NCBI GenBank assembly: GCA_963677745.1
Contig: OY782391.1
Span: forward strand, 960,001 to 1,024,000
Reading direction: 5' to 3'
DNA from: Candidatus Altimarinota bacterium
GTDB taxonomy: Bacteria; Patescibacteriota; Gracilibacteria; UBA1369
DNA length: 64,000 nucleotides
Shown here: in pieces, positions 19,866-42,669 of the stretch
How positions within the stretch are numbered: position 1 is the stretch's first letter
How the letters are laid out: each line of letters begins with the position of its first letter
The notes under the pieces: generated by a model
Told to the model about the DNA's origin: nothing
Seen by the model: only the letters and a program-made list of their open reading frames with translations
The model's database searches: none
Translations under genes and position numbers: made by a program

Positions 19866-19890
19866 AAAAGCCCCCGCGCAGCGGGGGCTT
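19866..19890. terminator. Intrinsic terminator between convergent operons
   Basis: AAAAGCCCCCGC-GCA-GCGGGGGCTT. U4 follows on the minus strand and a T-rich run follows on the plus strand. Confidence 0.8.
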
Positions 19891-19958: not shown

Positions 19959-21155
19959 TTATTTGGCGGCCGGCGCAGGTTTATTGCTGCATTGCTTGCC
20001 GAGAATATTGGCTGTGCATTTTTCCACTCTGGTCAGCGGAGTAAAGGTATCTTTGATAATTGTCTGGAGATCGTCCAGATTGGATTTTAGTTTATCCAGT
20101 CCCAAGCCCTGCACCTGGCGATATTTCAGATCATAGTTTGTTACATATTCCAGATCCAGTTCGCTGGTTCTGTCCCGGTCCTGAATCGTGTTCATATCCG
20201 CCGAGACCGATTGAAAGGTAATTGCCGGAAGTGCCGCTTTGCCCTCGCCATAAGAAAATGGAGCGTTTTCTTTGGCGGTATTGCTGATGCTTTCCCAGAC
20301 AGTTGCTTCCTGTGCGGGCTCCGCATTGACTCTGAGGTCGACCACTCTGTTGAAAAAATCTCCCAGTCCTTTTGAGCTGAAAACGGTGGCCAGTCCCGGA
20401 TTTTCCTTGACTCTCGTTTTCATTGCACTCCATCGTTTACTGGCTTTTTCGGCAAATCTTTTACCAAGGTTGTTGATGGTATCAATTGTGCTGCCGAAAT
20501 TATTGATTCTGTCCATCAGCTGTTCCAGGTTTGGATCGGTGCAGTTTCTGTAGCTTTCGATTTTACTTTCATATTTCTGAAAAAGTTTTTCAAACACCGT
20601 AGCAGCCTGTTGTTGGTCGAAATAGGCCATTTTATTGACAAACAAGTCCATGAATTTGGCTCTGACGTCATTTTTCCTTGCTACCTTCTGTTTCTTTTCC
20701 TCTTCTCCGTTTTTGGGATTGGCCGAAGGTGCGGTGTCGACAAAATGCCGCAAATAGTAAAGTTCAGCCGATAATTCATAATACTGAGCGGAGACCGTGG
20801 TGGTGGTCTTGTTGTCACAGACATAGAAAGCCTGACGGATCTGTTTACGCGCCTTGTCGATCCGGTTGAGCAGACTGTCGATGTCCATAAAACGGCAATA
20901 ATTTGTACTGTAACGGCTGTACCCGACGCCGGGAATGTCCAAAATGTCAGTCCAGTAATCCAGGAACCCTTCGCCATCAAAATCCAAACCGTTGGTCAGG
21001 AAATTGCTGAAATCCCGTTTGCAGAATAGCTGGGTCCCGCTGCCTGCATTATTTTCCAATCCCTGCGCTCTGACCGGATCGGCGGAAGGTACCAGCATCG
21101 CCAGTGTCAGCATCAGCGTAAAGAGGGTTTCTAATTTTATGGTGATTTTATTCAT
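19959..21155 (-). CDS. Secreted Cys-containing helical hypothetical protein (398 aa)
   Basis: Signal peptide (..PVRA-QG). Ends EKCTANILGKQCS... Start overlaps the upstream stop (TGATG). Confidence 0.88.
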   Translation of the reverse strand: MNKITIKLETLFTLMLTLAMLVPSADPVRAQGLENNAGSGTQLFCKRDFSNFLTNGLDFDGEGFLDYWTDILDIPGVGYSRYSTNYCRFMDIDSLLNRIDKARKQIRQAFYVCDNKTTTTVSAQYYELSAELYYLRHFVDTAPSANPKNGEEEKKQKVARKNDVRAKFMDLFVNKMAYFDQQQAATVFEKLFQKYESKIESYRNCTDPNLEQLMDRINNFGSTIDTINNLGKRFAEKASKRWSAMKTRVKENPGLATVFSSKGLGDFFNRVVDLRVNAEPAQEATVWESISNTAKENAPFSYGEGKAALPAITFQSVSADMNTIQDRDRTSELDLEYVTNYDLKYRQVQGLGLDKLKSNLDDLQTIIKDTFTPLTRVEKCTANILGKQCSNKPAPAAK

Positions 21156-22999: not shown

Positions 23000-24039
23000 T
23001 AACTACATTTGGTTGTGGTGGCGTCAATAAACCGGATCGGGAAGGCATCGGTCTGTTTGCGGATTTCCACCAGGTGGTCACGGTATTTGACCAGTTCCGC
23101 AAAAGTATCCATGTACTTCACATGCATCTGCCAGGCTGAGCGCAGCTGACTGTAGGCGTCCAAAGTCTGGTCCAGAGCTGTTTTGGCGCGGGCAATTTCC
23201 TCATCGATAAATTTGATTCTGGCGGCCGTCGAATCAGCCGCATCGGTCAGAGTGAAAGTTGCGTTCGATAGAGCGCTCTTGCCAGCCGATTTCCACCATT
23301 GTATCTTGTTTATTTCATAATATAATTTGTTCTGCAGTTTGGTCTTTTTTTCCATGTCTTTCTCATCAATGACCTGTTTATTCAGCCGGCAGATGGTTTT
23401 ATCTTTCATCATGGCGGCCAACTTGGGATTGTTGCACTTATTCAGAATTGACTGGGGAGTGCTGTCATAGAGGGCGTCCCGCTTCAGATCCAGTGCCGCT
23501 TTGTAGCAGAAATAACTGTATCTCAGCTGGCTGATTCTCTTCACCCCCTCATAATCGTAATTGGCAAATTTGGTGGATGGCACTCCCAGCAGCGTTACCC
23601 CTATACAAAAGGGATGGGTAGCCGGGGAATCCGTTGTATTGACCGGATTGCAGACCGCGATGGAGCGGCAGGTCATATCATTGGTTTCTTTACCATTAGC
23701 GTTTTTGCAGAGTCCTCCGCCCCGCGTTGGATATTCTTCCAGACTGGGGGAGGGAACTTCCGCCACCAGATCCTGACCGCCTTCCGTGGCTGATTTCATG
23801 ATCTTCAGAATCTGTTCGTTGAAATAATCATTGGTTTTCTCGGTATACATATTGGCGAGGTCCGAAACGTCCATGTCATTGACCAGTCCGTCAAAACAGA
23901 ACTTCTCTACAAAACCCCGCGAATCCGTGGGAGGAGTTTGATCGTCATCGGCGCTTTTGCCCGTGGTCGCACCAACCACCATCAAGACAGCCATTGATGC
24001 CAGTAAAACCGTTGATGTGTAGAGAATTTTATTTTTCAT
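22999..24039 (-). CDS. Secreted/membrane-anchored Cys-rich hypothetical protein (346 aa)
   Basis: N-terminal hydrophobic segment, 9 Cys, C-terminal helices ending TTTKCS. ATG at 24039 overlaps the upstream TGA. Confidence 0.88.
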   Translation of the reverse strand: MKNKILYTSTVLLASMAVLMVVGATTGKSADDDQTPPTDSRGFVEKFCFDGLVNDMDVSDLANMYTEKTNDYFNEQILKIMKSATEGGQDLVAEVPSPSLEEYPTRGGGLCKNANGKETNDMTCRSIAVCNPVNTTDSPATHPFCIGVTLLGVPSTKFANYDYEGVKRISQLRYSYFCYKAALDLKRDALYDSTPQSILNKCNNPKLAAMMKDKTICRLNKQVIDEKDMEKKTKLQNKLYYEINKIQWWKSAGKSALSNATFTLTDAADSTAARIKFIDEEIARAKTALDQTLDAYSQLRSAWQMHVKYMDTFAELVKYRDHLVEIRKQTDAFPIRFIDATTTKCS

Positions 24040-24701: not shown

Positions 24702-24710
24702 CTTCTTGTT

Positions 24711-24719
24711 ATTCTAGCA
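24711..24719 (-). promoter_or_regulatory. Possible internal extended -10 promoter for the four accessory genes
   Basis: TGCTAGAAT on the minus strand, 9 nt before the ATG at 24701. Confidence 0.35.
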
Positions 24720-24747
24720 TATTTTGGCTTTTAATTCAGCCTTGGTA

Positions 24748-27700
24748 CTATTCGCCGTATTCTTTTATTTCCTTGATTTCCACCAGGTTGCTTTCGCTGA
24801 ATATCTCACTGTTATTGTCATTGGAAATTACTCCGATCAGTTTGTCTCCCACGATCAGGTCGGCGGTATGGTCGATGGCCGATGGGCAGGGGCAGCTGGC
24901 ACAGGGTTCGGGAATTACATACACTCCCTCACCCAGATCCTTTCGGGGATCGATCAGATCGTCGGCCGGATTAAGCGGGTCAGTGCCGCGTTTAACCTCC
25001 ATGCCGTCTTTGATACCTCCCCCGTCCGTATCGGGATTGAGAGGATCTGTCTTATAGATATCGGTTTCTTCCTGGTCTCCCAGGCCGTCTCCGTCCGTAT
25101 CGCGGTCATCCAGCCGGTTGAGCGGATTGGTTCCGTTTTTAAGAACTTCATCTCCGTCCTTTACGCCGCCTTTGTCGGTGTCGGCATCGTTGGGACTGGT
25201 TTTATATTTATTTATTTCATCCTGGTCGGAAAGGCCGTCGCCGTCAGCATCCAAATAGTCGTCTGAAGGATCGAGCGGATTAGTATGTCTGTCCAGAACT
25301 TCCACACCGTCCCAGATCCCGCCTTTATCTGTATCGGCCAGCCAGGGATCCGTACCGAATTTATATTCCTCCAGATTGACCAGCCGGTCTTTGTCCGGAT
25401 CATCGTCGGCATCGCTGGGATCAAGATAATCCAGATTATGTTGTTTCTCCCAGAAATCCGGCATGCCGTCGCCGTCGGTGTCAATCAGTGAACAGTCATA
25501 GGCCAGCAGGACCCTGTCGGCCAGTTTAATAAATTCGCCGCGATTCAGATCGGCTTCGGGATTCACGGCTTCCTCCGCCGTCAAAAGATAGTTGGATTTA
25601 AGAGTTTTACCGGGTTTGATGACGGTGGTCAGATTCTGGGCGATCTGCAGATAGGGGACATAATATGGTTCGGTCAGAGGGACTTTATCTAGGCTGATCA
25701 GTCCTTCCCGCTCCAATGCTTCCAGAATAATTTTCACGGCCTCGGCCTTGCTGATAGTGGCATCCGGGGCAAAGGGTGTCTTTCCTGAAACTTTATCGAT
25801 AAGTCCGCGGTAACCGGTAATGAATCCCTGGAAATAAGCTTCCTTGGTGGCGGCATAATACCAGGGCGGGGCCACACCTTCCTGATAAGGAATATCAGTA
25901 AAGACAGCTGGTCCGATTTTGGCTTCGGGGCGGGGCACTATACAGAAAGTATCCAGTATGACTTTGGCGAATTCCGAACGCAGAATCGGTTCGTCAAAAC
26001 CGAATTTGACCCGGTTGCCGGAAGGAATGCCTTTCAGTATTCCTCTCTGGAAGAAATTCAGGATGCTTTGATAATAAGGATTATTCTTATCCACATCGCT
26101 GAAAGGTGACGTAGCTGCTGCATTCGGATCAGTGCCGAAAACTTTTTCAAATGAATCGGGATATCCGTCGCCGTCACTGTCCGCCAGCAGCGGATTGGTG
26201 CCGGCCAGATATTCCTCCAGATTGGACAGTCCGTCCTGGTCGGAATCTTCGTCGGCATCCGCAGCATTGTCGATATTCAGGCCGTATTGCTGTTCCCACA
26301 GGTCGGGCATGCCGTCCTTGTCGGTATCGAAATCGGGGCCTTTATTGGATGACGCTCCCACAAACAACTGGAAGCTGGCTGGATCAAGAATAGTAATCGG
26401 CTTTTTATAACTGAAGGAAATGTAAAACTCGGCAATCACCGCGGTGGAATTATCGGGCTTTTGCAGAACCACCTGGAAAATCATCGGATCTTTCAGAGCG
26501 CTGGCGCTCTTCAGGGCCAGTTTGATGCGCGGATCATAAATGTAAAAATTTCCGCCGGAATCCAGAACGGCCACTCTTTTTAGCGAGGATTTTTCCAGTA
26601 TTTCCACCCCTCCGGCAAATTTTTCCGCGTCACCCGGGATTTTTTTGATCTCAAAATCAGAGCTGCCGCCAGTCGACGAACCAAGCAGATCCTTAATGTG
26701 TACTCCTTTGAACAGCAGTACGGATGGCCCCGTATAAACCACCTCCGGGCCGTCAACCACCACGTCGGTATTGGCATCAGATACCACAAACAGCGTGGCA
26801 ATGATTTTCCCCTGGGGATCTTTGACCACTACCCGAGTCGGCAGCAGGGGTTCTTCCGCCGGCAGTGCTTCCACCGAATAAAGAGGATTTTTCAAAATCA
26901 CCCGGCCCGTCTTTGGATCTATCTCCGCCACTACCTCGCCCTTTTCATTCTTTATGACTACCGTGTCATTTAAATTTAGATCGTTGACGGAGAACTTTCC
27001 TTCCGCATTGCTAAAGTATTTGCCGTTGGCATTGGCGGACAGGGTATGCAGAGCCTCCTTGACGCCTGCGCGATCCCTCAGCAGCGAGATTGGCATTTGG
27101 TCTTCGACCGGATCAAGCGAACCGCTGACAGTTTCTCCTTCCCCGTTTTGTTTGATCTGGAGAGTGGCGGATTGTTCGTCCAGGGAGATTTTTGGAACAT
27201 AAATTTCTATATCGATTTGCTGTTGGCCGGTATTATTGGACTGATCAACTACATTCAGCATCACCTGCCGGGGATTCAGATCTTTATAAGGTCCCAGTGT
27301 GAATACCGGATCATCCAAATCGTCATAGGCCAGACCGTTGCCGTCGCTGTCCACCCCGGGATTAATGTCATGTCCCAGGTTTCTGTCATTGGTCGGGTTG
27401 CCGTCGCCGTTGGAATCGTAAGTCAGGTCAGTATCGATGTAGTAACTCATTATTTTCCCGAAAGTGTCGAAAGATCTGCCGGTGTCGACGGTCAAAGTTT
27501 TGAAAATGGCGACTTTCCTCAGGCTCGGTCCGGCCACGGGTAAAGGCACCTGACGGTCCGAACAAATATTGGGTGACAGTGGAACCGCCGCCGTCTGCAG
27601 ACTGCGGAATCCAGTCCGGTCAAAAGACCTCACCACGGCATAATAAAAACCGTTGGGCAGGTTGAGCGTGATGGCGGGATTAGCAGGATCATCCAACACC

Positions 27701-30700
27701 CCGATCTGCATATTTTGTTCCGCATCAACCCTGGTATAGGCCTCCTGTGGCAATTTGATCAGGGCACTTCCGTCGCCCACCGATTCGTAGCGTGTATTCA
27801 GTTCGATCTTTGCACCCGGTAACAGTTTCTGATTTTCAACGGTGGAAGAGGGCGTGATGATGGTAACGGAACCGCTTTCCACCTTTATTTCCAGCTGCGC
27901 GCCAAAACTGTCGGGCAGTGAAATCAATTCACGGGCGGACATTTTCTTTTTAGCCATTTCCTGTCCGTCCGACCAGACCTGCAGCACGCTGTCCTGGGAA
28001 GCAAAAATCTGTTCTCCGGCCGAGAGCAAATATCTTTCGCTGCCCCCCGGCAGTATTTTTTGCTGCGGTCCGGTGAAGACTACTTCCCCGCTGACTTCGG
28101 CAGCCACCATTTCATAGAGTTGCGAGGCCGGGAATTCATAAGCATTTTCTTCGGCCTGCAGTACCGAATTGGTCAGCATTCCGCCGGTTGATTCCTGGGA
28201 ATTCAGATATACGTATTTGGACAAACCGGAGGCTTTCAGGTCATTGATAACGCCCTTATAGGCCACACCGCCCAGTTTCGGTCCGACAATCAGTTCATAG
28301 CCGGTGGAATCGGCGGCGGTGATGGCGCTCCAGGTCAAATCCAGAGTCTGGTTGCCGGTAAAGGTAGCCAGCAGTCCGCTGACCGATCTTTCCGCCGGAA
28401 CCAGTTCCTCCAGATCATAATACTTGGGCATCCCCCCATAGAATTTCCCGATTTTGCCGGTGGTTTTGTAATTTTCTTTCAGATAGACATTGCTGCCGAA
28501 AGAATAAACCAGATCTTTGTCTGTGTCCCCGTTCACATCCACAAAATTCATGGTGGAAGGCAGGGAAAGCTCATCTTCGTAACTGATCAGTTTTTCATTG
28601 ATTTGTTGGGCTTCATTATAGATAAACATCCCTTTGCTGACCGGTTTTGACTGCAGGGAAGCTGGCAGGCCGGAATTCGCCGTCAAATCGTCCATGCTCG
28701 GCACTTTGGCATAAGTCTTCTTTTCGGAAGCCATCATGGTGCCCTCCGCATAGCCCGATTTGACCAGCAGGTCGGAGATGCCGGGTAATTTGGCGGTCAA
28801 AGTGGCAAATTTGGACAGGTCATTGCTGGCCAGCAGTTGTTCATCAATTTTTTGATTTTCCCGGGCATAGGCAAACAGATTTTGACGGAGATTAGCCAGT
28901 TTTTTGGTTTCATCAAAGCCGTCTCCCAGTGCCAGCATCACTCCGTCATAATCAAAATTCTGTAAATTCTCCAGTGATTTATTGACCGAGCTGTCGGTCG
29001 GATTGATCACGGTTGCTCCGGCTACCAGTTTGATATCCTGAAAATCCCTGTCGATAATCTCACGGTAGCGGGCGGATTCCGCCTCCAGTTCCTTGCTGAC
29101 TGTCATCAGTCCGGCAATCGATTCGGCCAGCTGCGGCGAAAATGCGGCAAACTCACGGGCCAAAGACTGATCTGAGGAAAGCTGGGTTTGTAGATCGGCG
29201 GGCAGATAGTTCAGAAGGGCGTTGTTGCCGGCATTTCCCTCAGGCATATTGTTTTGCATGGTCGCATTGGCTGCGGCGGCCGACGCGGCCGCCGCATTTT
29301 CGATTCCCTTGGTAAGAGAGTTGGCTGTCTCGGAAAAGGTAGTCGAGACTTTATTCAGATTGTTGGCCACCAATTGAACCATGTCATAAATAGTGGTGAA
29401 TTGCAGTGCCTTGTTGAGGTTGATCTTCACGGTCAATACAATCCTGTCCACATAATCATAACTGATATTGGGAAGTTGGAAGGCCAGTCCCAAATCAAAT
29501 GGCAGAAGCGGATCCAGACCGCGTTCCGTCATGTGTTCGACGGTGGACTTCAAGACATTTTCATTGGTGGGAATAAATCCTTTTTTGATCAGACACAATA
29601 TTTTGAAAATCTTTTTCAGTATGCTGATGGTCGCCTTGATCGCGCCCGGAAGTGCCGGAATCTTGGGTGGAGGGGGCAGATTGGGCAAAGCCGGGATGAT
29701 CAGCGGCGGCAAATCGGGAAGTTCCGGCAGACTGAAGGACAGATCGGGCAAGACCGGGATCTCCGGCAGGGTAATCTGGAAAGTTGGTAATTCCGGCAGC
29801 ACGATTCTGGGAAGTTTGGGCAGAACCAGTTTTTCCGGTCTGAATTTAATATCCGGGAAGAGTATGGTAATACCCATTTGCACCTGTGAAAAATCCAGAT
29901 AAATATCGGGAAGTTTGGGAAAGGGGATAATGGGCGGGCTGGGAATAAAAGCAAATAGTTTTAAAATCAGCTCCAGCAGGGTGAAACGGGCCGAACTGCA
30001 CTTATCGCAGGAAGTCTGGTAATCGATAATCAAATCGAACATCATCTTCCAGGTGGCAATTGTTTCTACCAGCTTGGCCACGGCATCTACCCAGCCATAA
30101 GCCTGGTCCAGCCACTTGGCAATATTTCCCACGAAAAACTGTACTATGGCATCGATATAACAAATCACCTGAGAAACATATTTGGTCAGCATATTTCTCC
30201 AGGCCAGCAGTTGTCTGGGTAATTTCTTATACCCCTCAAGCACTTCGATATTTTTTTCCACCGACTGAATCAGCTTGGTCATGTCGGCGGTAAAGATGTC
30301 GCACACCTTGGCGTAAGGACGGTCACCGTAGACTATCACAGTCTTGCCTTCCGCGTCGGTGGTTTCATAACCGGGGACTTTTCCTCCTCCGCCGTTCGGA
30401 TCATCCACCATCTCCTTGAAAGGTCCGCATTTCCACACGGCCAGGGCTCTTTCCAGCTCATATTTTTCATCCTGCACCCATTGCTTGGCATCATTGATGA
30501 AACGTTCTATTTCTCCGGGAGTAAGCGAAGGTATCTTGATAATTACTTCCTGAGGCACTATGGAAAGAAGCGGGAATTGATTGATTTTATTGAGTACCCC
30601 CCTCAGTCCGCTTGGATTTACCGGTTCGTCTTTGACTCTCAGATTTCCCTCTTTCAGATCGCTGATAACCTTGCCGGCATCCTGGAATGGCGCCCAGACC

Positions 30701-33700
30701 TTGGGAAAAAGTATATAGATATCAGGAAGATCGGTCAGTTTGTTGATGATTTCCGAGCTCTGGTTGTCCAGCCAGTCTGTCAATACCGACGGGAATCCGG
30801 GCATACGGATATTGGATTTGGCGTTCACCTTAAAGCCGTAATTGCCCAAGCTGGAAGAGGCTTCAAAACCGCCTGTATAATTTTTCCCATCGGCCGTCGG
30901 CGTATCGGCCAGGCTGCCGTCGGAAACATTACCAATGGTTCCGGAAACGTCGGAAACAATACTGTTGGCCGCTCCCAGGGCCCCTTGCATAGCTTTGTTG
31001 ATAGCCTTGCATAATTCTGCAAAAGGATCGATCGGCAATACAATTGTGAAACAGTTGCCCGGCACAGGGCCAAATCCCACCAGATAAGTCCCGAAACAAT
31101 TGGCCATGGCAATTTTTCCGGTCAGAGTTGGCGACAGATAAAGACGGTACTGGGAAGCTTGAAAAGGCGACGGAGGCCAGATGGGGACAGGGCTGGGTAT
31201 GCCTGCGGCAAAAATCGGGAAGCCGGGATCGAAACCCGAGGGGATTCCCATTACGTTGATTGCACCCGGAGCCAGAAAAGCAAAATTGATCGGTAAAGGT
31301 ATGCAGCCGCCGGTACAGGTCAGAGCCGCCAAAGCGCCCTCCAGTTTATCCGCCGCCTGATCCAAAGCCGCTCCTGCACCGTCATAGAAGGCACCCACAC
31401 CCGGTATACCCGAGACGCTGTCTCCTTCGGTAGAACCGCCGCCTCCTCCGCCACCTCCGCCGGTGTCACCCATGGTTATTCCCGGGAAGGTCCCGTAATC
31501 CATCAAGTATTTAACGGCAATCGGCATCCCGTCCGGACCTTTTTGTTCGAACAAACTCAAATCTATTCCCACCGGTTTGCCGGTTTCGGGATTTGTCGGT
31601 TGTTGATAGCCGGTAGTTGCGCTGGCATTGGGATCAGGGGTGACGTAAGTCCCATAGGTCATTTGCCCCGTGCCGTTGTTTTTGCTGATTGAATAATAAT
31701 AAACCATTCTGCCGGTTGGATTGCCGTCAGGTGAAGCTGCAATGTCGGGATAACCGTCCTGCACCGGATAGGAGCTGGTCAGATTTTGACCGACCGCGAT
31801 TTTCACTTTTGGTAATTGCTTTACGGTTACCCTGTAAGTGATGGTCCGGGTTGAATTGGCAGGCAGATCGATACCGGTCGCCTCATCACTCCCCGTAATC
31901 AGATAGGGACGCAGACTCATCCCGGAGTCAATCAGTCTGATTGGCTTTTTACAGTCGGAACATTTGATGGAATCCTTATTCAGTTCCACGTTTTCCGGGA
32001 CTATGTCCGCCAGCATTAACTGGCTGACGGCTTTATTGAGAGTATTTTTCAGCTTGATGGTGTATTCCAGCTGATCCCCCAGACTCAGTACGTCAAACGG
32101 CTCGGTGATATCCTGGGCCTTCTTGGTGCTATATGTTCCAAGAGTTCCCAGAGGCACAACATCATCGGCCAGTGATTTGAATTCCAGCGTTTGATCCTGG
32201 GCAGCAGTATCGCCCTTCAAAGTAATCTTTTCAAAATATTTATCGTCCTGTGACCCTGCCTGATTGCCCTGCATATTGTCGTAATGGACAAAAACCTCTT
32301 CCTTCAGGTTGTCGGTTTGGTTAATCTTCACGCCCAGATTGCCAACCTGGCTGCCCTTCAGGTTGATCTCTCCTTTGTGGACATAGAATATTTTAACGTT
32401 GCCGTTGTCGTCGGAAACCACCAGGTCGGTAAAAGAGTCCTGATTCATGTCCGCCGCCCGCAGCATGAAAACTTTATTTTTTGCCGAATAACCTTCCAGT
32501 GCCAGATTTTTACGGACAAAATTACCCTGATTGTTGAGATAGGCATCCACGCACACTTCACCGATCTTGCAGCTGTCGGCTGTGGCGACTACCAGATCCT
32601 GCCAGCCGTCATCATTGATATCCAGGACTGCCTGGCTCAAAATCCCGGTCGGGAAATTTAGCAAGACTCCCCGTGGTAAGAATTCTTTACCGTAATTGAC
32701 GTTCTCCATCAGTTTGATGCGTCCGTCTTCGAAAGACACAAATAAATCTTTGTCGCCGTCATTGTCATAATCGATGGGCGTTACTTCTTTGACGGTTTTA
32801 TTGTCGGCCAAAATCATTTTGCCCATGTCCATCGTAAAGCCGGTGGCGGAATACAGCCGGTCCAGAGTGGTGGGGTCCCTTCTGTTATCCAGACGTACGG
32901 TGGGATCTCCCAGCACCACGCCCGCGTCGGAAGAATAAGGAAGATTGGCTTCACCGGCCGAATTGCCGGCGGAAAACAGCAGCACGTTTTTATTATCGCC
33001 TTTCAGTCCGATACCGTCTTCCTGGTCGGCTGATTCCAATGACAGATAAGGCATGCCCGGAGCTTTGTCCTTACCCAGCGGCTGACTGTCGTCGGTATAA
33101 TAATATCCCCGCGGGGCGGCGGAAGAATTACCTGAAAACGACTGCACGAAACTTCGGTCGGGCAACTCCGAAAGTTTCCTCAGATAGACCCCCGGAATAC
33201 CTGCAAGCGGTTCATCCTCCAACAATTTCACGCCGACCGGATTGGCAGTGGAGATAATCACCTGTCCCAGTTCATTGCCCATGTCGCGCAGGCTCCAGTT
33301 GATGTTGCTGGGATAATTTCCTTCACCCGTCACCAGATCAACCGTCGGGCCAAACAGCCTGACTTTAGCATCGCGTCCGATTTCAGCCAATAACTGATTG
33401 TCCCGGGTCAGGGTAATTTTTTCACCTTCATTTTCAAAAATATAATGCTGGTCTTCCGCTACCAGATTGAGAACATTAACGGTTTCATGGGTCAGGTCCA
33501 GATCGGCGGGGTCCAGAACCAGTTTGACCTGGCTTTGGGGTTTGGCGACTATACTGACTTCCATCAGCTCTTTTTTCTTGTTCAGATCATTCACCACCTG
33601 TTTTACCGGCGCATTATCCTGTCCCGTGGGTACCAGCCTGATTTCAAAACTGTTGCTGTCGTTCAGTTTGACCGCTCCCGAAGTCAACACCTCCAGCAGT

Positions 33701-36700
33701 CTCATTTTTGGTTTCGGATCGGTGATCAGGGAAGCCGCGCTCTGAACCTTTCCACTGAACACAAACCATCCTCCGAAATAATCCGTCTGCGTTACCTCGC
33801 CGAAGGATGCTCCCAGCAGATCGGCATAGAGAAATTTTGGTTTGATCTGACGCAGATCACGTCCGGCCAGTTGATTAACCACCGAAACCTCCAGATATCC
33901 GTCCAGCAAATCCTTGGCCTTGGCACGTATTCGCACCGGCCCGGTCAGTGTACCGGTCTGGAAATCGACATCGGCCTGTCCGTTTTTAACCTTAACCGCA
34001 GGCTGGGAAATGATCTGTCCGAACTTGGCGGATTCAGGATCAATCGAAAAGGTCAGAGACGTGGAATTGTCGCGTTTGACCAGATTGCCGTTGCCGTCAA
34101 AAATTTTGGCCCTAACCGTATAGCCCTGGGCCGGATCGGCTTTGACTTCCATCTGACTGCTTTCCAGGACAATCATTTTGGGATTGAAGGCGTAGTTTTC
34201 CAAAGTCAGGGAGCTGGTCGAAAGTCCCGGAATACTGGCCAAAAGTACCATCTTACCGGCTTTGGTGGAGCTTCTGACTGTAAACTTCACCAGTCCGTTT
34301 TCCAGCGGAAGAGTCAGTGAGGAAAGGGGGTTTTTTTGCGCGTCGAGGATCTGGCCCATTTCCGGATTCATCAGCTTGAGGTTGGCCTCGCCCTTAAAGG
34401 AGGAGAGATTATTGCCCAGGGCATCCTCGACGCGCACTTCCACCTGTGTGTTGTCGGTAGCATCAGCCTTCAGTTCGGGCTTGTTGGATTTGATAATCAG
34501 TTGCAGGTCATCCCTGGTCTGTACGGTTGCATCTGCCTCCACGCTTGCCGGCAGGAAAATTTGACTACCAGCCTTAAGCAGCGTGGCGGTGGAATTATTG
34601 GGAATTTCCTGGGTAACCAGTTCCGGATCCTGATAGGACACTTTGACGTTCAAACCTTCAGGGGCCTGACCGGAAAGCAATTTCAGCTGATACTGGCCGG
34701 TCACGGAGGTGACCTGTATTCCAGGCAGGGCTTTATCTTCATCCTGTTTTGGATCAAGCTGGGCAGGTTTTTCTCCTCCCGCATCCGTCTCCAGACCGAA
34801 AGTGGCCGTGTAACTGGCACTGTCGGCCAGATTACCGTTTTTATCCCGGAAAGTGGCCAGCAGATCGGTGGTTGATTTCCCGCCGCTGGGGATGATCGGG
34901 GAGACTGCTTTAAGTTCGGCTTTGGCTGGAGGAAGAGCATAAACCTCAAGCAGTTTTTCGTCACTGGGAACATTTTTCCCGTCGATTGAGGCAATCACTG
35001 TTGGCAGGCCGGTGGTGGTTTTGGTGGTCAGGGTGGTTTCCGCCACGCCGTTTTTTGCCTGTACATTCAGAGGGTAAAGCGAAGAAGTAATTCCGTCATC
35101 CTTATCCTTAAACCCGAATTTTACCACGCTGAGACTGTCATCATTTCTTAAATTGCCGTTCTCATCATAGATCGATGCCCGGATATAAAGCTGGCTTTCA
35201 CCGTCGGCCGGGACGCGGTCTGTTTCTTCCGTATTGATTTGCGCGGCATCGGCAGCGGATATGTCAGGTACCTCATAGATGGTCTTCGGACCTATTTCCA
35301 GACCGGACAGATAAGCTCCGTCACCGGCGCTTTCCAGGCCGCTGCCGCTGCCAAACAGTTTATCGTCGCCCGTATCCAGAGGATCGATTCCCAGCAGCAC
35401 TTCGGTTCCGTCCCGCACACCACCTTTATCGGTATCGGGATCAAGCGGATTGGTTTTGGTATCTTCCGTCTCACGGGAATAAGTCAGCCCGTCATCATCG
35501 TCATCACTATTGGCGTCCGGTTGGGGAGGTTTGGGGAAATCATCAGCAGGATCAAGGGGATTGGATCCGCGTAAAACTTCCTCTCCATCCTTTACCCCTC
35601 CTTTATCCGTATCGGCATCACCTGGATTGGTGCCATAAACATATTTCTCCAGATTGTCCGGGAGGCCGTCGCCGTCCTTATCATTGGTCAGACAGTTGTA
35701 TTTGTCGCTGAACCTGGAAACCATAATAGCAAATTCCACCCGGCTGATCGGCTGATTCAGCCAGATCATGAATTGACTGTTGGCCAGTCCGCCCGGCAGT
35801 CCGGAACTGGAGTTGATTATTTCCTGATCAAAATATGCTTTGAATTTATCGGACGACGGATCGTCCAGTAGCTGGAATTTTCCTCGCGGGAAAATCCCTT
35901 CTTTCTGGGCGGTCAGAACATAATTGTAATACCAGGGTTTGCCAGACAGATTTTCATTGGCCACGAATTGCGGAAAACTCTCGATCTGCTGTCTGGCCGT
36001 TTCCAGTATCACCTTGGTGGCTTCGGCTCTGGTTATGTTGGCCTTCGGTACATAATAACCGACATTCTCATAAGCTTTGTAACCGGAAATTATTCCCCTG
36101 TTTTTTCCTTCCGCCACGCAGTATTTATAATCCTGTCCGATGTCTGTATCCGGAAAAGCTGTCCGGGTATAAACTTTCATGACCGATTCTTTGACTTTCT
36201 CACTAAAGCGGTCACACATCACACAGATGCCTCCCAGATCCAGTTTGATAAATTCTTCCCTGGTGATGCTGTCGTTTGGTCTGATGTCTCCGTTACTGTC
36301 CGCCACCACCACGCCTCTGCGCAGCAGCTTAACCACCTCGTTGAAACCTTCCTGGCCTTTGGACAGATCATTAAACAACAGTTTATCCGGCAGCCGGGGA
36401 TCATTGCCCTCCGTCAGATCCTGCAGGTCGCTCTGTCCGTTTCCGTTGGTATCGGCTTTATTCAGATCGGTTCCGATCGACAGTTCTTCCAGATCGTTCA
36501 AACCGTCCTTATCCGTATCCGGAATAATCAGACCGGTTGGTGTTGTGGTGGAAACGGGAACAGTTGGCTCCTGGGCATGTGCCCGTCGTGTTGAAAATTT
36601 TGCGGCCAGCCAGTTTCCGGCCAGCAGCACTCCGGGTAATTTTGCAAAAAACTCATTTATCTCTTCATAGGGGAGTTCCGTGATTTTTTCAAAACGGCTG

Positions 36701-39700: not shown

Positions 39701-42285
39701 TCAATAGTGTTGATCGGTTTCCCGTTGATTAAAATTTGGGTGGTATCATCGACCGGTTTCTGGATTGATTTAAGAAAATCCGTTTTGGCCTGTTCAATCA
39801 GAGTTGGATCCGGTATCAGGGCCAATGCATCCAGCCAGGGCTCAATGGCACTGAAGAAGTCGTTATTCTTATATCCAAAATTTACAAAATTAATGTTGTT
39901 GAATTTGAGTTTTGATCCGGGCGGAAAAACCCCGTTGGCATCCGGCAGTATCACATAACCGCTCAGGGTAGAGCCTTTGACCAGCTCAATATCATACTGC
40001 AATTGCTGCACATATTTATCCACCCTCTTTTCAATGGCATCATTGACGGCTTTGAGATAAAGCCGGGTGAACTCGTCTTTGGCGGCCACCAGAAAAGGGA
40101 AAGTTACCAGATCGGAAACGTTCTTATTGTTGCTGTCTTTATAGGTCTGCTTGTAGCGCCCGGTGGAATCGGTCCAGACATTGATATCGGCAAAGAATTT
40201 ATCAAACAGATCATTGTATTTCTTGAAAAAATTCATGATGATATCCTTGGTGCGGATATCCGGCAGATTCTCAAAGATGTCCCCGCCGTCACTCTGCGTA
40301 CCCAGGGCATTTCCGGGATCTTCATCCTTTGGTCCGTCCTGATCTTTGTCATTGTCCGCCCCCCCATCCTCATCCACCATACCGTCTTCATCGTCATCCG
40401 ACGGACTACCCTCGTCTATCCACTCATCGCCCGACGGAAAAGGCCCCAGAAAACGCGGAATCAGCATCGGCGGCAGGGGCGGGATCAGCATGGTGATGAT
40501 CGGGAATGACCACCAGGCTTTCTTGTCCGTAGTACTCTTCATGCTGTCGAAGGCCTGTTTCACGTTGCCGTTGGCGGCTGCACTGAGCAAATCGCCAATC
40601 TGAAAAGGGGTCAGCATCAGCGAGCCATAGTCGCGTTCATAACCATCGGGCCAGCCATCCTGGTCCGAATCGACTGAGTCATTGTCTTCATCCGTGTCGC
40701 ATTCACCCGGACAACCGTCACCGTTCATATCGCCCAGATCATCTTCATCCTGTTTGCCATCCTGATCGGCGTCATTATCCTGGGAAGTATCCTCATCAAT
40801 TCTTCCGTCACGGTCATTATCCACCTGGATGAACGCGTCTCCTTCATCCTCGTCTGTGCCTTCGTCGACCCGCATGTCTTCTTCGGGATTGTTGTTGACG
40901 TTATCGGATACCTTGTAAAGGCTTCCCGGTTTGGTGTTGTAATAGTTTCCTGTTTTGTAGGGTTGGCCGGCAGCCTGGCACTTTTGAAGTACGGTTTTAC
41001 CCAAAGCAGGTATCGGGGAGCAGATTCCCCAAACACCTTCTTCATCATTATCGATTTTTCCATCATTGTCGTCGTCCACCCGGTTAATCAAACCGAACAG
41101 GGGACTGCCCGGTTCACCGTCGCCGTCATCATCGTAACCGTTGGATGGATCCTCATCTATCTTGCCGTCGCCGTCATTGTCCACGCCGTCTCCTTCGGGC
41201 TTGCCGAGCGGTGACTCGGACAGCAGTTTTTTGGCCCAGGTTTTATTGAAACGGAAATAGCTGATGTCTTCCCAGTATTTCAGATACTGTTCGTAACTGG
41301 GCAGGCCTTCCGCACCCATCAGCTGGTATTCCTTGTTCAGGTCGCTATAGAAAAGTTTCTTGTCGAAATCACTCCAGCCCGGTTCCCCGATCTTGAAGAG
41401 ATGGTTTTTATCAAAATATTCCGCCAGTAATTCATTACCCTCCTCTCCGTCCGCCGGAGGAACAATCAGGCCGTGCCAGACATCCGCAGCGGGATTCTGA
41501 CTAGCCGTGTTGATTTTGAAATCCCCGCTGGCCTGATCAAAAACATAATATGGTTCGTCAAAGTCGGTATAAGGAAAAAGGCTGACAAAACGGTTATCAT
41601 TTTTATTTACCACCGGCAGTGGCACCTGGCCGACGATCACCAGACCGGTCAGCCGGTTGGTTTCGGAAAGAGTGCCGTCACCTTCCCGGTAGAGTTTTTC
41701 CAGCGCTGCCGCAATGTCCTGTGTCGGCTGGTCGCGCTTGACCTTGATGATGGCGGTCTTTGTAAAAGGTACCGGATTTTTTACCTTATTGATTCCCTGA
41801 ACGTCTCTGGCATATCTCTCAACGCGTCCCATCAGGGTCTGTTCGGTCAGTTTGCGGTAAAGCTGGTCAGGCGAATCCGGTACTGTCTGGTTATGTTCAG
41901 TCGTCAGTCCGTCATAGCTCCGGTTGTTATTGGCGATTTCTTCGTCCACCAGAATAGCCACCAGGTTGAACTGGGTATTGTTTTTCACCTGGGTCTGGTA
42001 GGCGGCGGCTCCGGCGGCACTGTCAAACTTCTCCAGGATTTCCCCGCTCTTGCCAAATACCGAACTGACCGCCGAACTGATCATCCCACCGAAATCCGGA
42101 GCCGCCGCTTGCGTCACCTGCAACTCCCAGAAAGCCAGGGCGGTCGGGCTGGAAACATGAAAAATAAACACCGTCAGTAGCAGCAGGGACAGGCCCCGCT
42201 TCAGATCAAACCGCCGGACTGCCCGCAGCAGGGCCGTTTTGGCGGTCAAAAATCTCACCTTTAATGGTATTTTTTTTACGAACAT
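24748..42285 (-). CDS. Giant (5845 aa) multi-domain cell-surface protein: signal peptide, Asp-rich Ca-binding repeats, invasin-like Ig domains, two SLH triplets, FG-GAP/VCBS repeats, DUF11, Cys/Pro-rich core, FN3/PKD-like domains
   Basis: Uninterrupted 17.5 kb ORF. Motifs: DGVDNDGDGKIDE; DTDKDGLNDLEE and DTDKGGVKDGEE; IRPNDSITREEF, ANITRAEATKVIL, TISKAEAVKIIL (SLH); DYDNDGDKDL, DINDDGWQDLVV, DMNQDSFTDLVV (FG-GAP); GDQLEYTIKLKN..TITYRVTV (DUF11); VPADGESQ and LKADATDNT (Big_1-like). Confidence 0.95.
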   Translation of the reverse strand: MFVKKIPLKVRFLTAKTALLRAVRRFDLKRGLSLLLLTVFIFHVSSPTALAFWELQVTQAAAPDFGGMISSAVSSVFGKSGEILEKFDSAAGAAAYQTQVKNNTQFNLVAILVDEEIANNNRSYDGLTTEHNQTVPDSPDQLYRKLTEQTLMGRVERYARDVQGINKVKNPVPFTKTAIIKVKRDQPTQDIAAALEKLYREGDGTLSETNRLTGLVIVGQVPLPVVNKNDNRFVSLFPYTDFDEPYYVFDQASGDFKINTASQNPAADVWHGLIVPPADGEEGNELLAEYFDKNHLFKIGEPGWSDFDKKLFYSDLNKEYQLMGAEGLPSYEQYLKYWEDISYFRFNKTWAKKLLSESPLGKPEGDGVDNDGDGKIDEDPSNGYDDDGDGEPGSPLFGLINRVDDDNDGKIDNDEEGVWGICSPIPALGKTVLQKCQAAGQPYKTGNYYNTKPGSLYKVSDNVNNNPEEDMRVDEGTDEDEGDAFIQVDNDRDGRIDEDTSQDNDADQDGKQDEDDLGDMNGDGCPGECDTDEDNDSVDSDQDGWPDGYERDYGSLMLTPFQIGDLLSAAANGNVKQAFDSMKSTTDKKAWWSFPIITMLIPPLPPMLIPRFLGPFPSGDEWIDEGSPSDDDEDGMVDEDGGADNDKDQDGPKDEDPGNALGTQSDGGDIFENLPDIRTKDIIMNFFKKYNDLFDKFFADINVWTDSTGRYKQTYKDSNNKNVSDLVTFPFLVAAKDEFTRLYLKAVNDAIEKRVDKYVQQLQYDIELVKGSTLSGYVILPDANGVFPPGSKLKFNNINFVNFGYKNNDFFSAIEPWLDALALIPDPTLIEQAKTDFLKSIQKPVDDTTQILINGKPINTIEDISECSLYRGSEGDENSQMVIASTLYDPSANLNAASTPRMPESWNSYPQDALTGTDGNDYHGLLWHWNNGPENFLDEGVFQFLPTAAHTPTIFKWLNDQRILNKSFAGCFSENVKEPTRCFPALATRYIFSLGGTRQVTGIPKNATSHQACFDLKEKNGFDAFALAANIYLKHIAAQQTPEGKASYDPEKPSQAAIYQPPKQIKLLDITNAPPTEMEPALIIPQATIDAAQADPNLGTFSVNLEDVLKKFLGGNRVDDNSDGQIDEAAEANLQFFPIDQNGQPNWNQVGEQLLQKLRINENDPDGKVKPLKFGNNVIPGTKEVYIKVAPLVGKKISSLVYHKDPTIDTIQSQTYELARDANGNLLEDNTLSDQEKKLNGKYQVATKTVPDPNNEGQTITVKKETRSALSIPIDSPRYATFRDSKGNYQEIVYPNSFRAANVTELKQQLADLEQQLSLIEVNPLYADPELPSVNGYLTGILEPALSNDVMNTALDEVSVASESKLADALQWKSFDIDQKHNYALSHYWGSANNPFTPLSESKNGYEVLYLNSTGASDAMSMKFNKDIPPPKEEVKTESVDCTDPQFAKYLACKGQEPPSSGESGSGGSGSAPGAGEGNGESSMPVFLTEWFQKLGEWAKETMSIMAGQGATLACPAGGFTDLPGSGPVDSSAYTPDMVVSVPVDTDGNGIPDQADQTVMLSLQYDKNSKNILAGGTSDQTKVMVQALDDNGVWNKADSNSKVKLTLKTESGTDPVATIIGEDNTQLAGGKAYFLLGAGNNSGTVSLQAELADRPEVRSDVLVLKVTSERIKLMSFRRYTTYKFTEGAEAGYSIFDGNGNAIAETDPKTGYINILDKNKYELRVLAASGKKPLRQAVAGKEDGKIYAILYFVAGGDKAVNIDATSTDYSKDFTSLDGVHLKDLSAGDHLSLQSANEEEIMKGGYLIIDKNTQDNKGRVGYIDKRGNAFTALKMKIKEGPTNGPVIFQIENSNGQPALELYVGSRFEKITELPYEEINEFFAKLPGVLLAGNWLAAKFSTRRAHAQEPTVPVSTTTPTGLIIPDTDKDGLNDLEELSIGTDLNKADTNGNGQSDLQDLTEGNDPRLPDKLLFNDLSKGQEGFNEVVKLLRRGVVVADSNGDIRPNDSITREEFIKLDLGGICVMCDRFSEKVKESVMKVYTRTAFPDTDIGQDYKYCVAEGKNRGIISGYKAYENVGYYVPKANITRAEATKVILETARQQIESFPQFVANENLSGKPWYYNYVLTAQKEGIFPRGKFQLLDDPSSDKFKAYFDQEIINSSSGLPGGLANSQFMIWLNQPISRVEFAIMVSRFSDKYNCLTNDKDGDGLPDNLEKYVYGTNPGDADTDKGGVKDGEEVLRGSNPLDPADDFPKPPQPDANSDDDDDGLTYSRETEDTKTNPLDPDTDKGGVRDGTEVLLGIDPLDTGDDKLFGSGSGLESAGDGAYLSGLEIGPKTIYEVPDISAADAAQINTEETDRVPADGESQLYIRASIYDENGNLRNDDSLSVVKFGFKDKDDGITSSLYPLNVQAKNGVAETTLTTKTTTGLPTVIASIDGKNVPSDEKLLEVYALPPAKAELKAVSPIIPSGGKSTTDLLATFRDKNGNLADSASYTATFGLETDAGGEKPAQLDPKQDEDKALPGIQVTSVTGQYQLKLLSGQAPEGLNVKVSYQDPELVTQEIPNNSTATLLKAGSQIFLPASVEADATVQTRDDLQLIIKSNKPELKADATDNTQVEVRVEDALGNNLSSFKGEANLKLMNPEMGQILDAQKNPLSSLTLPLENGLVKFTVRSSTKAGKMVLLASIPGLSTSSLTLENYAFNPKMIVLESSQMEVKADPAQGYTVRAKIFDGNGNLVKRDNSTSLTFSIDPESAKFGQIISQPAVKVKNGQADVDFQTGTLTGPVRIRAKAKDLLDGYLEVSVVNQLAGRDLRQIKPKFLYADLLGASFGEVTQTDYFGGWFVFSGKVQSAASLITDPKPKMRLLEVLTSGAVKLNDSNSFEIRLVPTGQDNAPVKQVVNDLNKKKELMEVSIVAKPQSQVKLVLDPADLDLTHETVNVLNLVAEDQHYIFENEGEKITLTRDNQLLAEIGRDAKVRLFGPTVDLVTGEGNYPSNINWSLRDMGNELGQVIISTANPVGVKLLEDEPLAGIPGVYLRKLSELPDRSFVQSFSGNSSAAPRGYYYTDDSQPLGKDKAPGMPYLSLESADQEDGIGLKGDNKNVLLFSAGNSAGEANLPYSSDAGVVLGDPTVRLDNRRDPTTLDRLYSATGFTMDMGKMILADNKTVKEVTPIDYDNDGDKDLFVSFEDGRIKLMENVNYGKEFLPRGVLLNFPTGILSQAVLDINDDGWQDLVVATADSCKIGEVCVDAYLNNQGNFVRKNLALEGYSAKNKVFMLRAADMNQDSFTDLVVSDDNGNVKIFYVHKGEINLKGSQVGNLGVKINQTDNLKEEVFVHYDNMQGNQAGSQDDKYFEKITLKGDTAAQDQTLEFKSLADDVVPLGTLGTYSTKKAQDITEPFDVLSLGDQLEYTIKLKNTLNKAVSQLMLADIVPENVELNKDSIKCSDCKKPIRLIDSGMSLRPYLITGSDEATGIDLPANSTRTITYRVTVKQLPKVKIAVGQNLTSSYPVQDGYPDIAASPDGNPTGRMVYYYSISKNNGTGQMTYGTYVTPDPNASATTGYQQPTNPETGKPVGIDLSLFEQKGPDGMPIAVKYLMDYGTFPGITMGDTGGGGGGGGGSTEGDSVSGIPGVGAFYDGAGAALDQAADKLEGALAALTCTGGCIPLPINFAFLAPGAINVMGIPSGFDPGFPIFAAGIPSPVPIWPPSPFQASQYRLYLSPTLTGKIAMANCFGTYLVGFGPVPGNCFTIVLPIDPFAELCKAINKAMQGALGAANSIVSDVSGTIGNVSDGSLADTPTADGKNYTGGFEASSSLGNYGFKVNAKSNIRMPGFPSVLTDWLDNQSSEIINKLTDLPDIYILFPKVWAPFQDAGKVISDLKEGNLRVKDEPVNPSGLRGVLNKINQFPLLSIVPQEVIIKIPSLTPGEIERFINDAKQWVQDEKYELERALAVWKCGPFKEMVDDPNGGGGKVPGYETTDAEGKTVIVYGDRPYAKVCDIFTADMTKLIQSVEKNIEVLEGYKKLPRQLLAWRNMLTKYVSQVICYIDAIVQFFVGNIAKWLDQAYGWVDAVAKLVETIATWKMMFDLIIDYQTSCDKCSSARFTLLELILKLFAFIPSPPIIPFPKLPDIYLDFSQVQMGITILFPDIKFRPEKLVLPKLPRIVLPELPTFQITLPEIPVLPDLSFSLPELPDLPPLIIPALPNLPPPPKIPALPGAIKATISILKKIFKILCLIKKGFIPTNENVLKSTVEHMTERGLDPLLPFDLGLAFQLPNISYDYVDRIVLTVKINLNKALQFTTIYDMVQLVANNLNKVSTTFSETANSLTKGIENAAAASAAAANATMQNNMPEGNAGNNALLNYLPADLQTQLSSDQSLAREFAAFSPQLAESIAGLMTVSKELEAESARYREIIDRDFQDIKLVAGATVINPTDSSVNKSLENLQNFDYDGVMLALGDGFDETKKLANLRQNLFAYARENQKIDEQLLASNDLSKFATLTAKLPGISDLLVKSGYAEGTMMASEKKTYAKVPSMDDLTANSGLPASLQSKPVSKGMFIYNEAQQINEKLISYEDELSLPSTMNFVDVNGDTDKDLVYSFGSNVYLKENYKTTGKIGKFYGGMPKYYDLEELVPAERSVSGLLATFTGNQTLDLTWSAITAADSTGYELIVGPKLGGVAYKGVINDLKASGLSKYVYLNSQESTGGMLTNSVLQAEENAYEFPASQLYEMVAAEVSGEVVFTGPQQKILPGGSERYLLSAGEQIFASQDSVLQVWSDGQEMAKKKMSARELISLPDSFGAQLEIKVESGSVTIITPSSTVENQKLLPGAKIELNTRYESVGDGSALIKLPQEAYTRVDAEQNMQIGVLDDPANPAITLNLPNGFYYAVVRSFDRTGFRSLQTAAVPLSPNICSDRQVPLPVAGPSLRKVAIFKTLTVDTGRSFDTFGKIMSYYIDTDLTYDSNGDGNPTNDRNLGHDINPGVDSDGNGLAYDDLDDPVFTLGPYKDLNPRQVMLNVVDQSNNTGQQQIDIEIYVPKISLDEQSATLQIKQNGEGETVSGSLDPVEDQMPISLLRDRAGVKEALHTLSANANGKYFSNAEGKFSVNDLNLNDTVVIKNEKGEVVAEIDPKTGRVILKNPLYSVEALPAEEPLLPTRVVVKDPQGKIIATLFVVSDANTDVVVDGPEVVYTGPSVLLFKGVHIKDLLGSSTGGSSDFEIKKIPGDAEKFAGGVEILEKSSLKRVAVLDSGGNFYIYDPRIKLALKSASALKDPMIFQVVLQKPDNSTAVIAEFYISFSYKKPITILDPASFQLFVGASSNKGPDFDTDKDGMPDLWEQQYGLNIDNAADADEDSDQDGLSNLEEYLAGTNPLLADSDGDGYPDSFEKVFGTDPNAAATSPFSDVDKNNPYYQSILNFFQRGILKGIPSGNRVKFGFDEPILRSEFAKVILDTFCIVPRPEAKIGPAVFTDIPYQEGVAPPWYYAATKEAYFQGFITGYRGLIDKVSGKTPFAPDATISKAEAVKIILEALEREGLISLDKVPLTEPYYVPYLQIAQNLTTVIKPGKTLKSNYLLTAEEAVNPEADLNRGEFIKLADRVLLAYDCSLIDTDGDGMPDFWEKQHNLDYLDPSDADDDPDKDRLVNLEEYKFGTDPWLADTDKGGIWDGVEVLDRHTNPLDPSDDYLDADGDGLSDQDEINKYKTSPNDADTDKGGVKDGDEVLKNGTNPLNRLDDRDTDGDGLGDQEETDIYKTDPLNPDTDGGGIKDGMEVKRGTDPLNPADDLIDPRKDLGEGVYVIPEPCASCPCPSAIDHTADLIVGDKLIGVISNDNNSEIFSESNLVEIKEIKEYGE

Positions 42286-42652: not shown

Positions 42653-42669
42653 CAATATCGTTGTGGATA

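Follow-up and report, generated by a model that had tools for sequence, protein, structure and literature searches.

The window analysed here, a stretch of 64,000 nucleotides (positions 960,001 to 1,024,000 of contig OY782391.1, assembly GCA_963677745.1, Candidatus Altimarinota bacterium), contains a giant gene and, downstream of it on the same strand, four small genes. The genome of origin (G000) is one contig of 1,335,835 bases and is 97.9% complete. Homologues of the window proteins are labelled Candidatus Peregrinibacteria in public databases, and the source organism is an ultra-small, probably host-dependent bacterium of this group. On the minus strand, the single-copy giant gene P0005 (24748..42285, 5845 aa) is followed by the open reading frames (ORFs) P0001 (24039..24701, 220 aa), P0002 (22999..24042, 347 aa from a TTG start or 346 aa from an ATG one codon later), P0003 (21155..22999, 614 aa) and P0004 (19959..21155, 398 aa), which represent the families fam0, fam1, fam2 and fam3, respectively. 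The five genes make up approximately 1.7% of the genome. The stop codon of the giant gene lies 46 nt ahead of the first small gene, and no terminator was found between them. Read base by base, the three junctions among the four small genes are TGATG (with the shared A at position 24039), TAATG (22999) and TGATG (21155), one base being shared at each. The likely operon terminator is a GC-rich palindrome (19868..19890) that can form a hairpin and has T/U runs on either strand, and the terminator closing the upstream pilin gene (42626..42653, minus strand) sets the upstream limit of the giant's transcription unit. Since terminators flank both ends, the five genes form one bounded unit; a sigma-70-like promoter was not found in the 385-nt leader. 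Among the sequencing runs listed as covering 19800-26000 there is none of RNA, compared with five of DNA from two studies. A first-pass annotation of the window had described this layout of giant, 46-nt gap, three 1-nt overlaps and terminator, and every coordinate was confirmed. In 20 loci of relatives, 56 of 59 junctions were overlapping or at most 20 nt apart when the first start codon of each frame was used. As tight junctions recur in this way, the arrangement is far beyond chance.

Each of the four small proteins has basic and hydrophobic stretches and an AxA-like site at its N-terminus. Read by eye, these N-termini appear to be Sec-type export signals, so that the proteins would be secreted, as the first-pass annotation had proposed. 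The same annotation had assigned them to no known family, which agrees with our searches: none of the four matched Pfam, NCBIfam, PHROGs (E≤0.01 for PHROGs) or, by profile, the Protein Data Bank (PDB). Weak PDB matches of their profiles were all coiled coils, the ESM Atlas returned no usable match for P0004 or P0003, and the database label of the P0004 family is hypothetical. By BLAST, no paralogy was found among the four. In profile-profile comparison the best pair was fam0-fam1 (37% probability, P 3.5e-4) with the C-terminal modules in register, and as these scores are weak a shared origin of the four families is not established. Judged by these searches, the small proteins are four distinct unclassified families.

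What the four proteins have in common is a C-terminal module of 56-75 residues with a hydrophobic period of 3.4-3.5 (z 4.1-5.9), a power reached by only 0-3 of 1000 shuffled sequences. Heptad-periodic helices, as expected of a disulfide-knotted coiled coil, were found by periodicity in all four chains. Each module is followed by conserved cysteines, in the patterns PCxxxxC (fam0), TTTxC (fam1) and Cx8C (both fam2 and fam3). In P0001 the module spans residues 150-212 and ends in PCxxxxC (C214 and C219); the conserved module of P0002 (residues 262-336) ends in TTTxC, and its C346 is present in 40 of 40 loci. P0003 combines a domain at its N-terminus with a low-complexity linker, a core rich in Cys and His, and a heptad module whose end carries C604...C613; the terminal helix of P0004 (residues 314-389) ends in C380...C389. 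Outside the modules the small proteins diverge fast, with 22-31% identity between families compared with 63-72% for UvrA and PilB. The structure model of the 398-aa P0004 is nearly all helix, with a mean predicted local distance difference test (pLDDT) score of 62.8 and a core at 80-95. It bears out the helical character claimed for the four proteins in the case of P0004, and for the other three this character rests on the periodicity of the C-terminal modules. No Foldseek match to the PDB at E<0.1 was obtained with the P0004 model; the best E values of this model and of that of the giant's centre (see below) were 0.15 and 0.87, and since the confidence of both models is low to moderate, such null results are weak evidence of a new fold.

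In a search of 1.84 billion clustered proteins, the family of P0003 was found to have 598 representatives at E≤0.001. Among the 150 matches listed, most were 480-700 aa long and most came near the full profile length. In its core, a cluster comprising C374, C379, D397-N398-C399-x-x-C402-H403 and C434 is invariant or nearly so in 21 sequences. No family matched this cluster (residues 374-434), which could be a metal-binding site or a small disulfide knot. An apparent fusion of fam2 and fam3 in one genome (G036) was discarded, as the single frame spans masked bases and is no evidence of a fusion.

To characterize the terminal cysteines, their presence or absence was scored over 40 loci. P0001 C214 and P0003 C613 were both present in 30 and both absent in nine of 39 loci, and P0003 C604 and P0004 C380 were both present in 29 and both absent in ten of 39; neither pair had a discordant locus. 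P0001 C219 and P0004 C389 were jointly lost in the one locus that lacks either. In three cases a cysteine out of position counted as present: in L077 it is shifted by one position, and in L062 and L072 by four positions each. The two cysteines within a protein are not coupled: exactly one terminal cysteine is retained by fam2 in 11 of 40 loci (nine by strict scoring), by fam0 in eight and by fam3 in nine. That cysteines of one protein are not lost together speaks against a loop within the chain. When a tree was computed from fam1 and fam2 after the cysteine columns had been taken out, a minimum of three changes was found on it for each trait, always in company with its partner, and the two pairs do not track each other. 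VKOR and DsbA-like proteins are encoded in the genome, so that extracytoplasmic disulfides could be made. Taken together, the covariation suggests that three of the four small proteins are joined by an interchain disulfide knot. In this arrangement P0001, P0003 and P0004 would lie side by side and parallel, locked at their C-terminal ends by bonds between P0001 C214 and P0003 C613, between P0003 C604 and P0004 C380, and probably between P0001 C219 and P0004 C389. The result would be a heteromeric coiled-coil stalk with variable N-terminal heads. The terminal cysteine of P0002, which is never lost, would bond elsewhere, possibly to the giant.

The giant protein is conserved in relatives as full-length, colinear orthologues of approximately 4,400-6,200 aa. 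In an alignment of 21 of them conservation peaks at residues 150-350, 3050-3300, 3650-4300 and 4900-5845. All features of the giant given in the following lie on the minus strand. By eye, its first 52 residues (42130..42285) comprise a basic stretch, a hydrophobic segment (residues 34-52) and an ALA site; they are read as a Sec-type signal peptide or signal anchor, and a PSALA-like motif recurs in orthologues. A conserved N-terminal domain (residues 100-360, 41206..41988) has 33 invariant columns among 21 sequences. The best conserved part is the central region (residues 3640-4340, 29266..31368), which is rich in cysteine and proline, has 59 invariant columns among 21 sequences and contains CxxGC and SCDxCxxxR as motifs, together with a long LPxLP run and an amphipathic stretch rich in Lys. 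At the C-terminus lies a domain with the motif CxxCPC (24751..24918), whose three cysteines are present in 21 of 21 giants aligned. Neither the N-terminal nor the central domain matched Pfam, NCBIfam, PHROGs (E≤0.01 for PHROGs) or PDB sequences. The structure model of the central domain is poor (pLDDT 57.3) and has no Foldseek match to the PDB at E≤0.001. For the N-terminal domain a protease-like identity, of the gingipain or caspase type, had been considered; the searches gave no support for it, a 'Caspase-2' row having an E value of 0.2.

Pfam matches of the whole giant at E≤0.01 were confined to TSP3_bac, S-layer homology (SLH), FG-GAP types, Big_1/Invasin_D3, Glyco_hydro2_C5 and two BBS propeller matches. 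A first SLH domain lies at residues ~1971-2013 (36247..36375, E 4.9e-11), with a TSP3_bac repeat just ahead of it, and a second at residues ~5394-5440 (25966..26106, E 3.1e-5), with TSP3_bac on both sides (best match 26122-26181). Both places were recovered in a second, genome-wide SLH search. Between them lie an Ig-like Big_1/Invasin_D3 domain (34969..35226), a second Ig-like match, to Glyco_hydro2_C5 (34207..34491), and FG-GAP repeats (32587..32772) within the conserved block 3050-3300. Residues ~1-1900 and 3300-4800 gave no family match, and about half of the protein is unmatched. Of the domains assigned to the giant in the first-pass annotation, SLH (in two places), FG-GAP and Ig-like domains were recovered, and DUF11 was not detected in this giant by Pfam at E≤0.01; PF01345 is precomputed for several orthologues. 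The database names of the orthologues are S-layer homology domain-containing, DUF11 domain-containing, VCBS repeat-containing, TIGR01451 family and hypothetical protein. By eye, Asp-rich repeats of the form DxDxDGxxDxxE were seen at residues ~365-665 (40291-41193); they look calcium-binding, are gappy and variable among orthologues, and TSP3_bac was not reported by Pfam over this stretch at E≤0.01. The genome has 67 SLH matches in total, a very heavy use for 1.3 Mb, and encodes a CsaB-like pyruvyl transferase (PF04230, E 1e-45, above the cut-off; C1:1305837-1306700). With SLH domains above the Pfam threshold and a CsaB-type enzyme in the genome, the giant is predicted to be an SLH-type cell-wall protein.

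Among the 21 orthologues, 22 cysteines of the giant are invariant, which implies that oxidative folding is needed outside the cell. This bears on the reading that the small proteins help the giant to mature or assemble, for instance as extracytoplasmic chaperones, disulfide, folding or wall-attachment helpers, instead of structural parts. The small proteins also have conserved cysteines, and co-translation from one message would suit helpers that are needed in the same place. Against this, no thioredoxin, chaperone or peptidase family matched them, the VKOR and DsbA-like proteins are already encoded elsewhere in the genome, and it is in structural fibres, not in enzymes or chaperones, that long heptad modules with one locked end typically occur. 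We consider a role as assembly factors very improbable, and prefer to regard the small proteins as components of the structure itself.

The linkage of the four genes to the giant in other genomes had been set as a test by the first-pass annotation, and it was examined by single-sequence searches in 61 relatives from 19 families of one order. Matches were found to P0004 in 54 genomes, P0002 in 54, P0003 in 59, P0001 in 48, and to the giant's centre and N-terminus in 55 each; only G042 (86% complete) lacked matches to all six queries. By a hand tally of coordinates, giant and cassette lie on one contig and in the same order in 44 of the 61 genomes. A contig end falls between P0001 and P0002 in two genomes (G009, G022), giant and cassette are on separate contigs of fragmented assemblies in eight, and a match to the central domain is missing in six (G005, G012, G025, G029, G035, G042). 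For a closer comparison 39 loci were fetched where earlier searches had located cassette genes; one of them (L030) is partial and two (L062, L069) contain masked bases. Family profiles recovered the order fam0-fam1-fam2-fam3 in 37 of the 39. In the other two (L078, L079), a fourth ORF is in place and ends in the KQC motif of the family, with a score below the profile threshold. The five genes are thus a tightly packed, terminator-bounded unit whose order and content are kept across the order. Across the phylum, a profile of the central domain matched 13 of 401 sampled genomes (8/8 of the order, 5/17 of other orders of the class and 0/376 elsewhere), and by this measure the module is, as sampled, restricted to the class of the window. 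G255 belongs to another order; there, too, ORFs of 224, 237 (fam1), 542 (fam2) and 405 aa come after the giant, and uvrA, a neighbour of the operon within the order, is about 600 kb away. The linkage thus holds across the order and in one genome beyond it. Of the three refuting tests named in the first-pass annotation, two, on linkage and on known families, therefore came out in favour of its proposal.

The reading that we favour, and whose chances we judge to be about even, is that of a cell-surface module peculiar to Peregrinibacteria and to some of their sister lineages, in which a disulfide-locked stalk works with the giant in cell contact. The stalk complex would sit on, or act with, the giant, and the SLH regions of the latter would hold it to the cell wall. 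As a whole the structure would be used to make contact with another cell, presumably the host, alongside the type IV pilus encoded upstream. The first-pass annotation had proposed that all five products form one stoichiometric complex, for example for host attachment or penetration. Of this, the association of three small proteins gains support from the covariation of their cysteines, and the binding of the small proteins to the giant and the role in host or cell contact are what we infer beyond it; a fixed stoichiometry stays at the level of a proposal.

The conservation of the giant can also be explained by a housekeeping scaffold of the envelope that is needed regardless of a host; it could be a spacer or strut associated with the S-layer or, on the wall, a scaffold for shape or division. 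A giant present in single copy and colinear in nearly every genome of the order fits a core component better than a fast-changing adhesin, and the two separated SLH regions and the 67 SLH matches of the genome point in the same direction, as does the heavy envelope investment stressed in the Peribacteria genome paper (PMC4736985). The Ig-like, FG-GAP and TSP3 domains, on the other hand, are typical of binding proteins, the rapid divergence of the small proteins relative to UvrA and PilB is as expected of exposed, interacting surfaces, and the adjoining genes encode a pilus and not enzymes of wall synthesis. We regard such a scaffold as unlikely.

Several observations weigh against the contact module itself. 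The independent events behind the cysteine covariation are few, three per pair on the best tree and two on well-supported branches (sign test, p 0.5). With two to three events per pair no test is significant, and kinship inflates the raw counts. The tree was drawn from fam1 and fam2, two of the cassette's own families, and the 39 loci were preselected for cassette genes. If the shifted cysteines of L062 and L072 are scored as absent, the second pair (C604/C380) has two discordant loci. The two structure models reach low to moderate confidence (pLDDT 62.8 and 57.3), and all of the positive evidence for contact is on the small proteins and not on the giant. Neutral as to binding is the outcome of an interface prediction run on the C-terminal modules of all four proteins and scored for P0004 as partner: it gave 0.32, compared with 0.28 when chain 2 was replaced. 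In G052, giant and cassette lie about 40 kb apart on one contig, a real exception to the linkage. In both of two genomes examined from family f22, the cassette is absent beside a giant-like gene, and a search of three f22 genomes with the fam2 profile gave one weak match. Concerning the pilus, a hand tally places the PilB orthologue on the giant's contig and at most 16 kb from it in approximately 38 of the 55 genomes with a match to the giant's N-terminus; the control gene uvrA, which is unrelated and located downstream, is adjacent in approximately 38 genomes, too. As uvrA is equally syntenic, the adjacency of the pilus genes within the order probably reflects block synteny and is not evidence of a shared function.

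Closer inspection of the two deviating cases gave the following picture. In G052 (contig C28, ~45,300-85,300; L060, L061), about 40 kb of ordinary-looking genes on both strands split the giant from the cassette, and the pilus ATPase orthologue is on another contig; no other of the 61 genomes shows a clear break of the linkage. In the class-level relatives L053 (G270) and L054 (G204), the giant-like gene is followed by a single 198-aa ORF without an obvious export signal. An alternative genetic code (code 25) in f22 was considered and rejected: the giant-like frames have zero to one in-frame TGA, and the 'extra ORFs' are full of TGA.

The G052 split and the f22 giants without an adjacent cassette would be expected if the small proteins formed a separate, co-transcribed complex, either a helical membrane-active or pore-forming effector set directed at the host or a pilus accessory, with the giant as an independent adhesin. 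The limitation of the contact evidence to the small proteins agrees with this, as do the weak PDB matches of their profiles, all to coiled coils, and a weak resemblance between a helical part of the giant and an alpha-xenorhabdolysin model, which at 15.7 bits (E 0.007) is below the cut-off of 125. The adjacency to the giant in 44 of 61 genomes and in G255, where other synteny is gone, speaks against independence, and so does the 46-nt gap in which no terminator was found. Furthermore, the four proteins matched no family of toxins, pilins or pore formers, and they lack the prepilin motif. There was no sequence match of the four to the ClyA/Hbl/Nhe/Xax alpha-helical pore-forming toxins, and no Foldseek match of the P0004 model at E<0.1. 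A complex separate from the giant is quite improbable in our estimate. For a phage tail or fibre, no PHROG match at E≤0.01 was obtained with the four small proteins or with the central and N-terminal domains of the giant.

The contact module was then compared with known systems. In Pseudomonas, the PilY1/PilC-type pilus adhesin works with four minor pilins, encoded in the fimU-pilVWXY1E operon. This weakens the argument of the first-pass annotation that an ordinary adhesin would not need four dedicated partners, since adhesins of the PilY1 type work with just this number. In both systems a single operon encodes a large adhesin, with a beta-propeller-type region and calcium-binding-type repeats, and four small partners, and type IV pilus genes are located beside it. 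In contrast to the PilY1 system, the partners here have Sec-type signals and lack the prepilin GFTLIE motif, they are predicted to be joined by C-terminal disulfides and not by pilin N-terminal helices, and the giant is about five times longer and SLH-anchored. The four small proteins matched neither N_methyl nor TIGR02532, whereas the neighbouring pilin matched both, and the PilY1/PilC family is absent from the Pfam matches of the giant (E≤0.01). By this comparison the PilY1 complex is the nearest functional analogue, but neither of its two defining features was found.

With SLH proteins of monoderms, such as S-layer proteins and the anchoring scaffoldins of cellulosomes, the giant shares the SLH domains, a CsaB-like enzyme in the genome, a large exported multi-domain architecture and calcium-binding-type repeats. 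It differs from them by two far-apart SLH regions in a chain of 5,845 aa, by having no cohesin or dockerin match, and by its four partner genes. Laminin and fibrinogen are heteromeric parallel coiled coils with interchain disulfides at the helix ends. Likewise, three chains here each have one long heptad-periodic helix, and cysteines at the same end covary; unlike those proteins, to which there is no sequence relation, the chains here are bacterial and 220-614 aa long, and their disulfide pattern is a predicted one.

Giant proteins have been reported from the same broad clade, the candidate phyla radiation (CPR). Peribacter has large cysteine-rich extracellular proteins of 1,219-3,861 aa (PMC4736985), Vampirococcus lugosii has giant membrane proteins of up to 4,163 aa for which host attachment was proposed (PMC8080830), and in a survey of 'huge proteins' Peregrinibacteria rank first among bacterial phyla for proteins of more than 5,000 aa, none with a COG assignment (PMC11573180). 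As far as the available parts of these three reports go, their giants resemble the present one in being very long and exported, in DUF11, integrin-like or Ig-type domains and in the attachment roles proposed; the same parts describe no five-gene module, partners, central domain or cysteine pattern. A published description of the module was not found in a literature search that covered abstracts and text passages. What is known in kind is a giant wall-anchored adhesin-type protein, here with dedicated partners and beside a pilus; what appears new, judging from the sequences, is a clade-wide module made largely of undescribed protein families. A more far-reaching proposal is that of a surface organelle of a categorically new kind, a host-contact machine by which Peregrinibacteria and their closest relatives would be defined. 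In it, a wall-anchored protein of ~5,800 residues with a Cys/Pro-rich, partly amphipathic core would bear, at its tip or as an extension, a heteromeric coiled-coil fibre with a ring of disulfides between the chains, and together with a dedicated type IV pilus it would dock onto, and possibly open, the host envelope. This we consider rather unlikely.

The gene adjoining the giant on its upstream side (42670..43212) encodes a type IV pilin, recognized by the GFTLIE prepilin motif and an N_methyl match, and further upstream lies a conserved neighbour block (47494..52870) with a PilC-like platform protein (47494-48795), a PilB/GspE-like ATPase of 429 aa (48799-50088) and two unclassified membrane-anchored proteins of 229 and 693 aa, all on the minus strand. 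This pilus cluster, which the first-pass annotation of the giant does not mention, is found there in nearly all relatives; pilin, PilC and PilB are directly upstream of the giant in four of four relatives examined. In these, which belong to four families, the order is L10, 693-aa protein, 229-aa protein, PilB, PilC, pilin and giant, with the match to the 693-aa or the 229-aa protein missing in one relative each and L10 missing in one. Outside the order, the ATPase lies within 19 kb of the giant in G255 and at about 10 kb in G270, on the opposite strand in both, with uvrA far away; that it stays near the giant is a mild hint at a link. The 429-aa ATPase aligns to the C-terminal two thirds of the PilB/GspE models only, with scores below the cut-offs. 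A second match to the T2SSE family, in a longer frame (617 aa), was found at C1:877176-878321, and the genome may have two distinct pilus systems. Two distinct pilus systems are also reported for Saccharibacteria (PMC11623550).

In the window, three extra genes lie between PilC and the pilin (43414-47413) that are not found at this place in the four relatives: a 443-aa ORF (43414-44745, plus strand), an SLH protein of 348 aa (44810-45856, plus strand) and a secreted protein of 491 aa without family (45938-47413, minus strand). The 443-aa ORF weakly resembles the N-terminal domain of the mosaic adhesive trimer fibre of Bdellovibrio (E 4.8e-4, 20 bits, below the cut-off of 60). The segment looks like a local insertion of further surface proteins. 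Elsewhere in the window, Pfam gave no match at E≤0.001 for two further long ORFs on the plus strand, at 5476-9207 (1,243 aa) and 57155-60628 (1,157 aa).

To our knowledge, how ultra-small CPR bacteria recognize and hold their hosts has been worked out for none but the cultured Saccharibacteria, in which type IV pili play a part, and we know of nothing comparable for Peregrinibacteria. The module described here is the largest single investment in these genomes of 1-1.5 Mb, and being nearly universal in the order, absent elsewhere in the sampled phylum and located beside pilus genes, it is an obvious first target for experiments on their lifestyle. One conserved giant per genome would explain the top rank of Peregrinibacteria for proteins of more than 5,000 residues in the 2024 survey (PMC11573180). 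Six families or domains without known relatives, the four small proteins and two domains of the giant, are candidates for structural work, and the predicted disulfide pairs offer a concrete and inexpensive biochemical test of the stalk.

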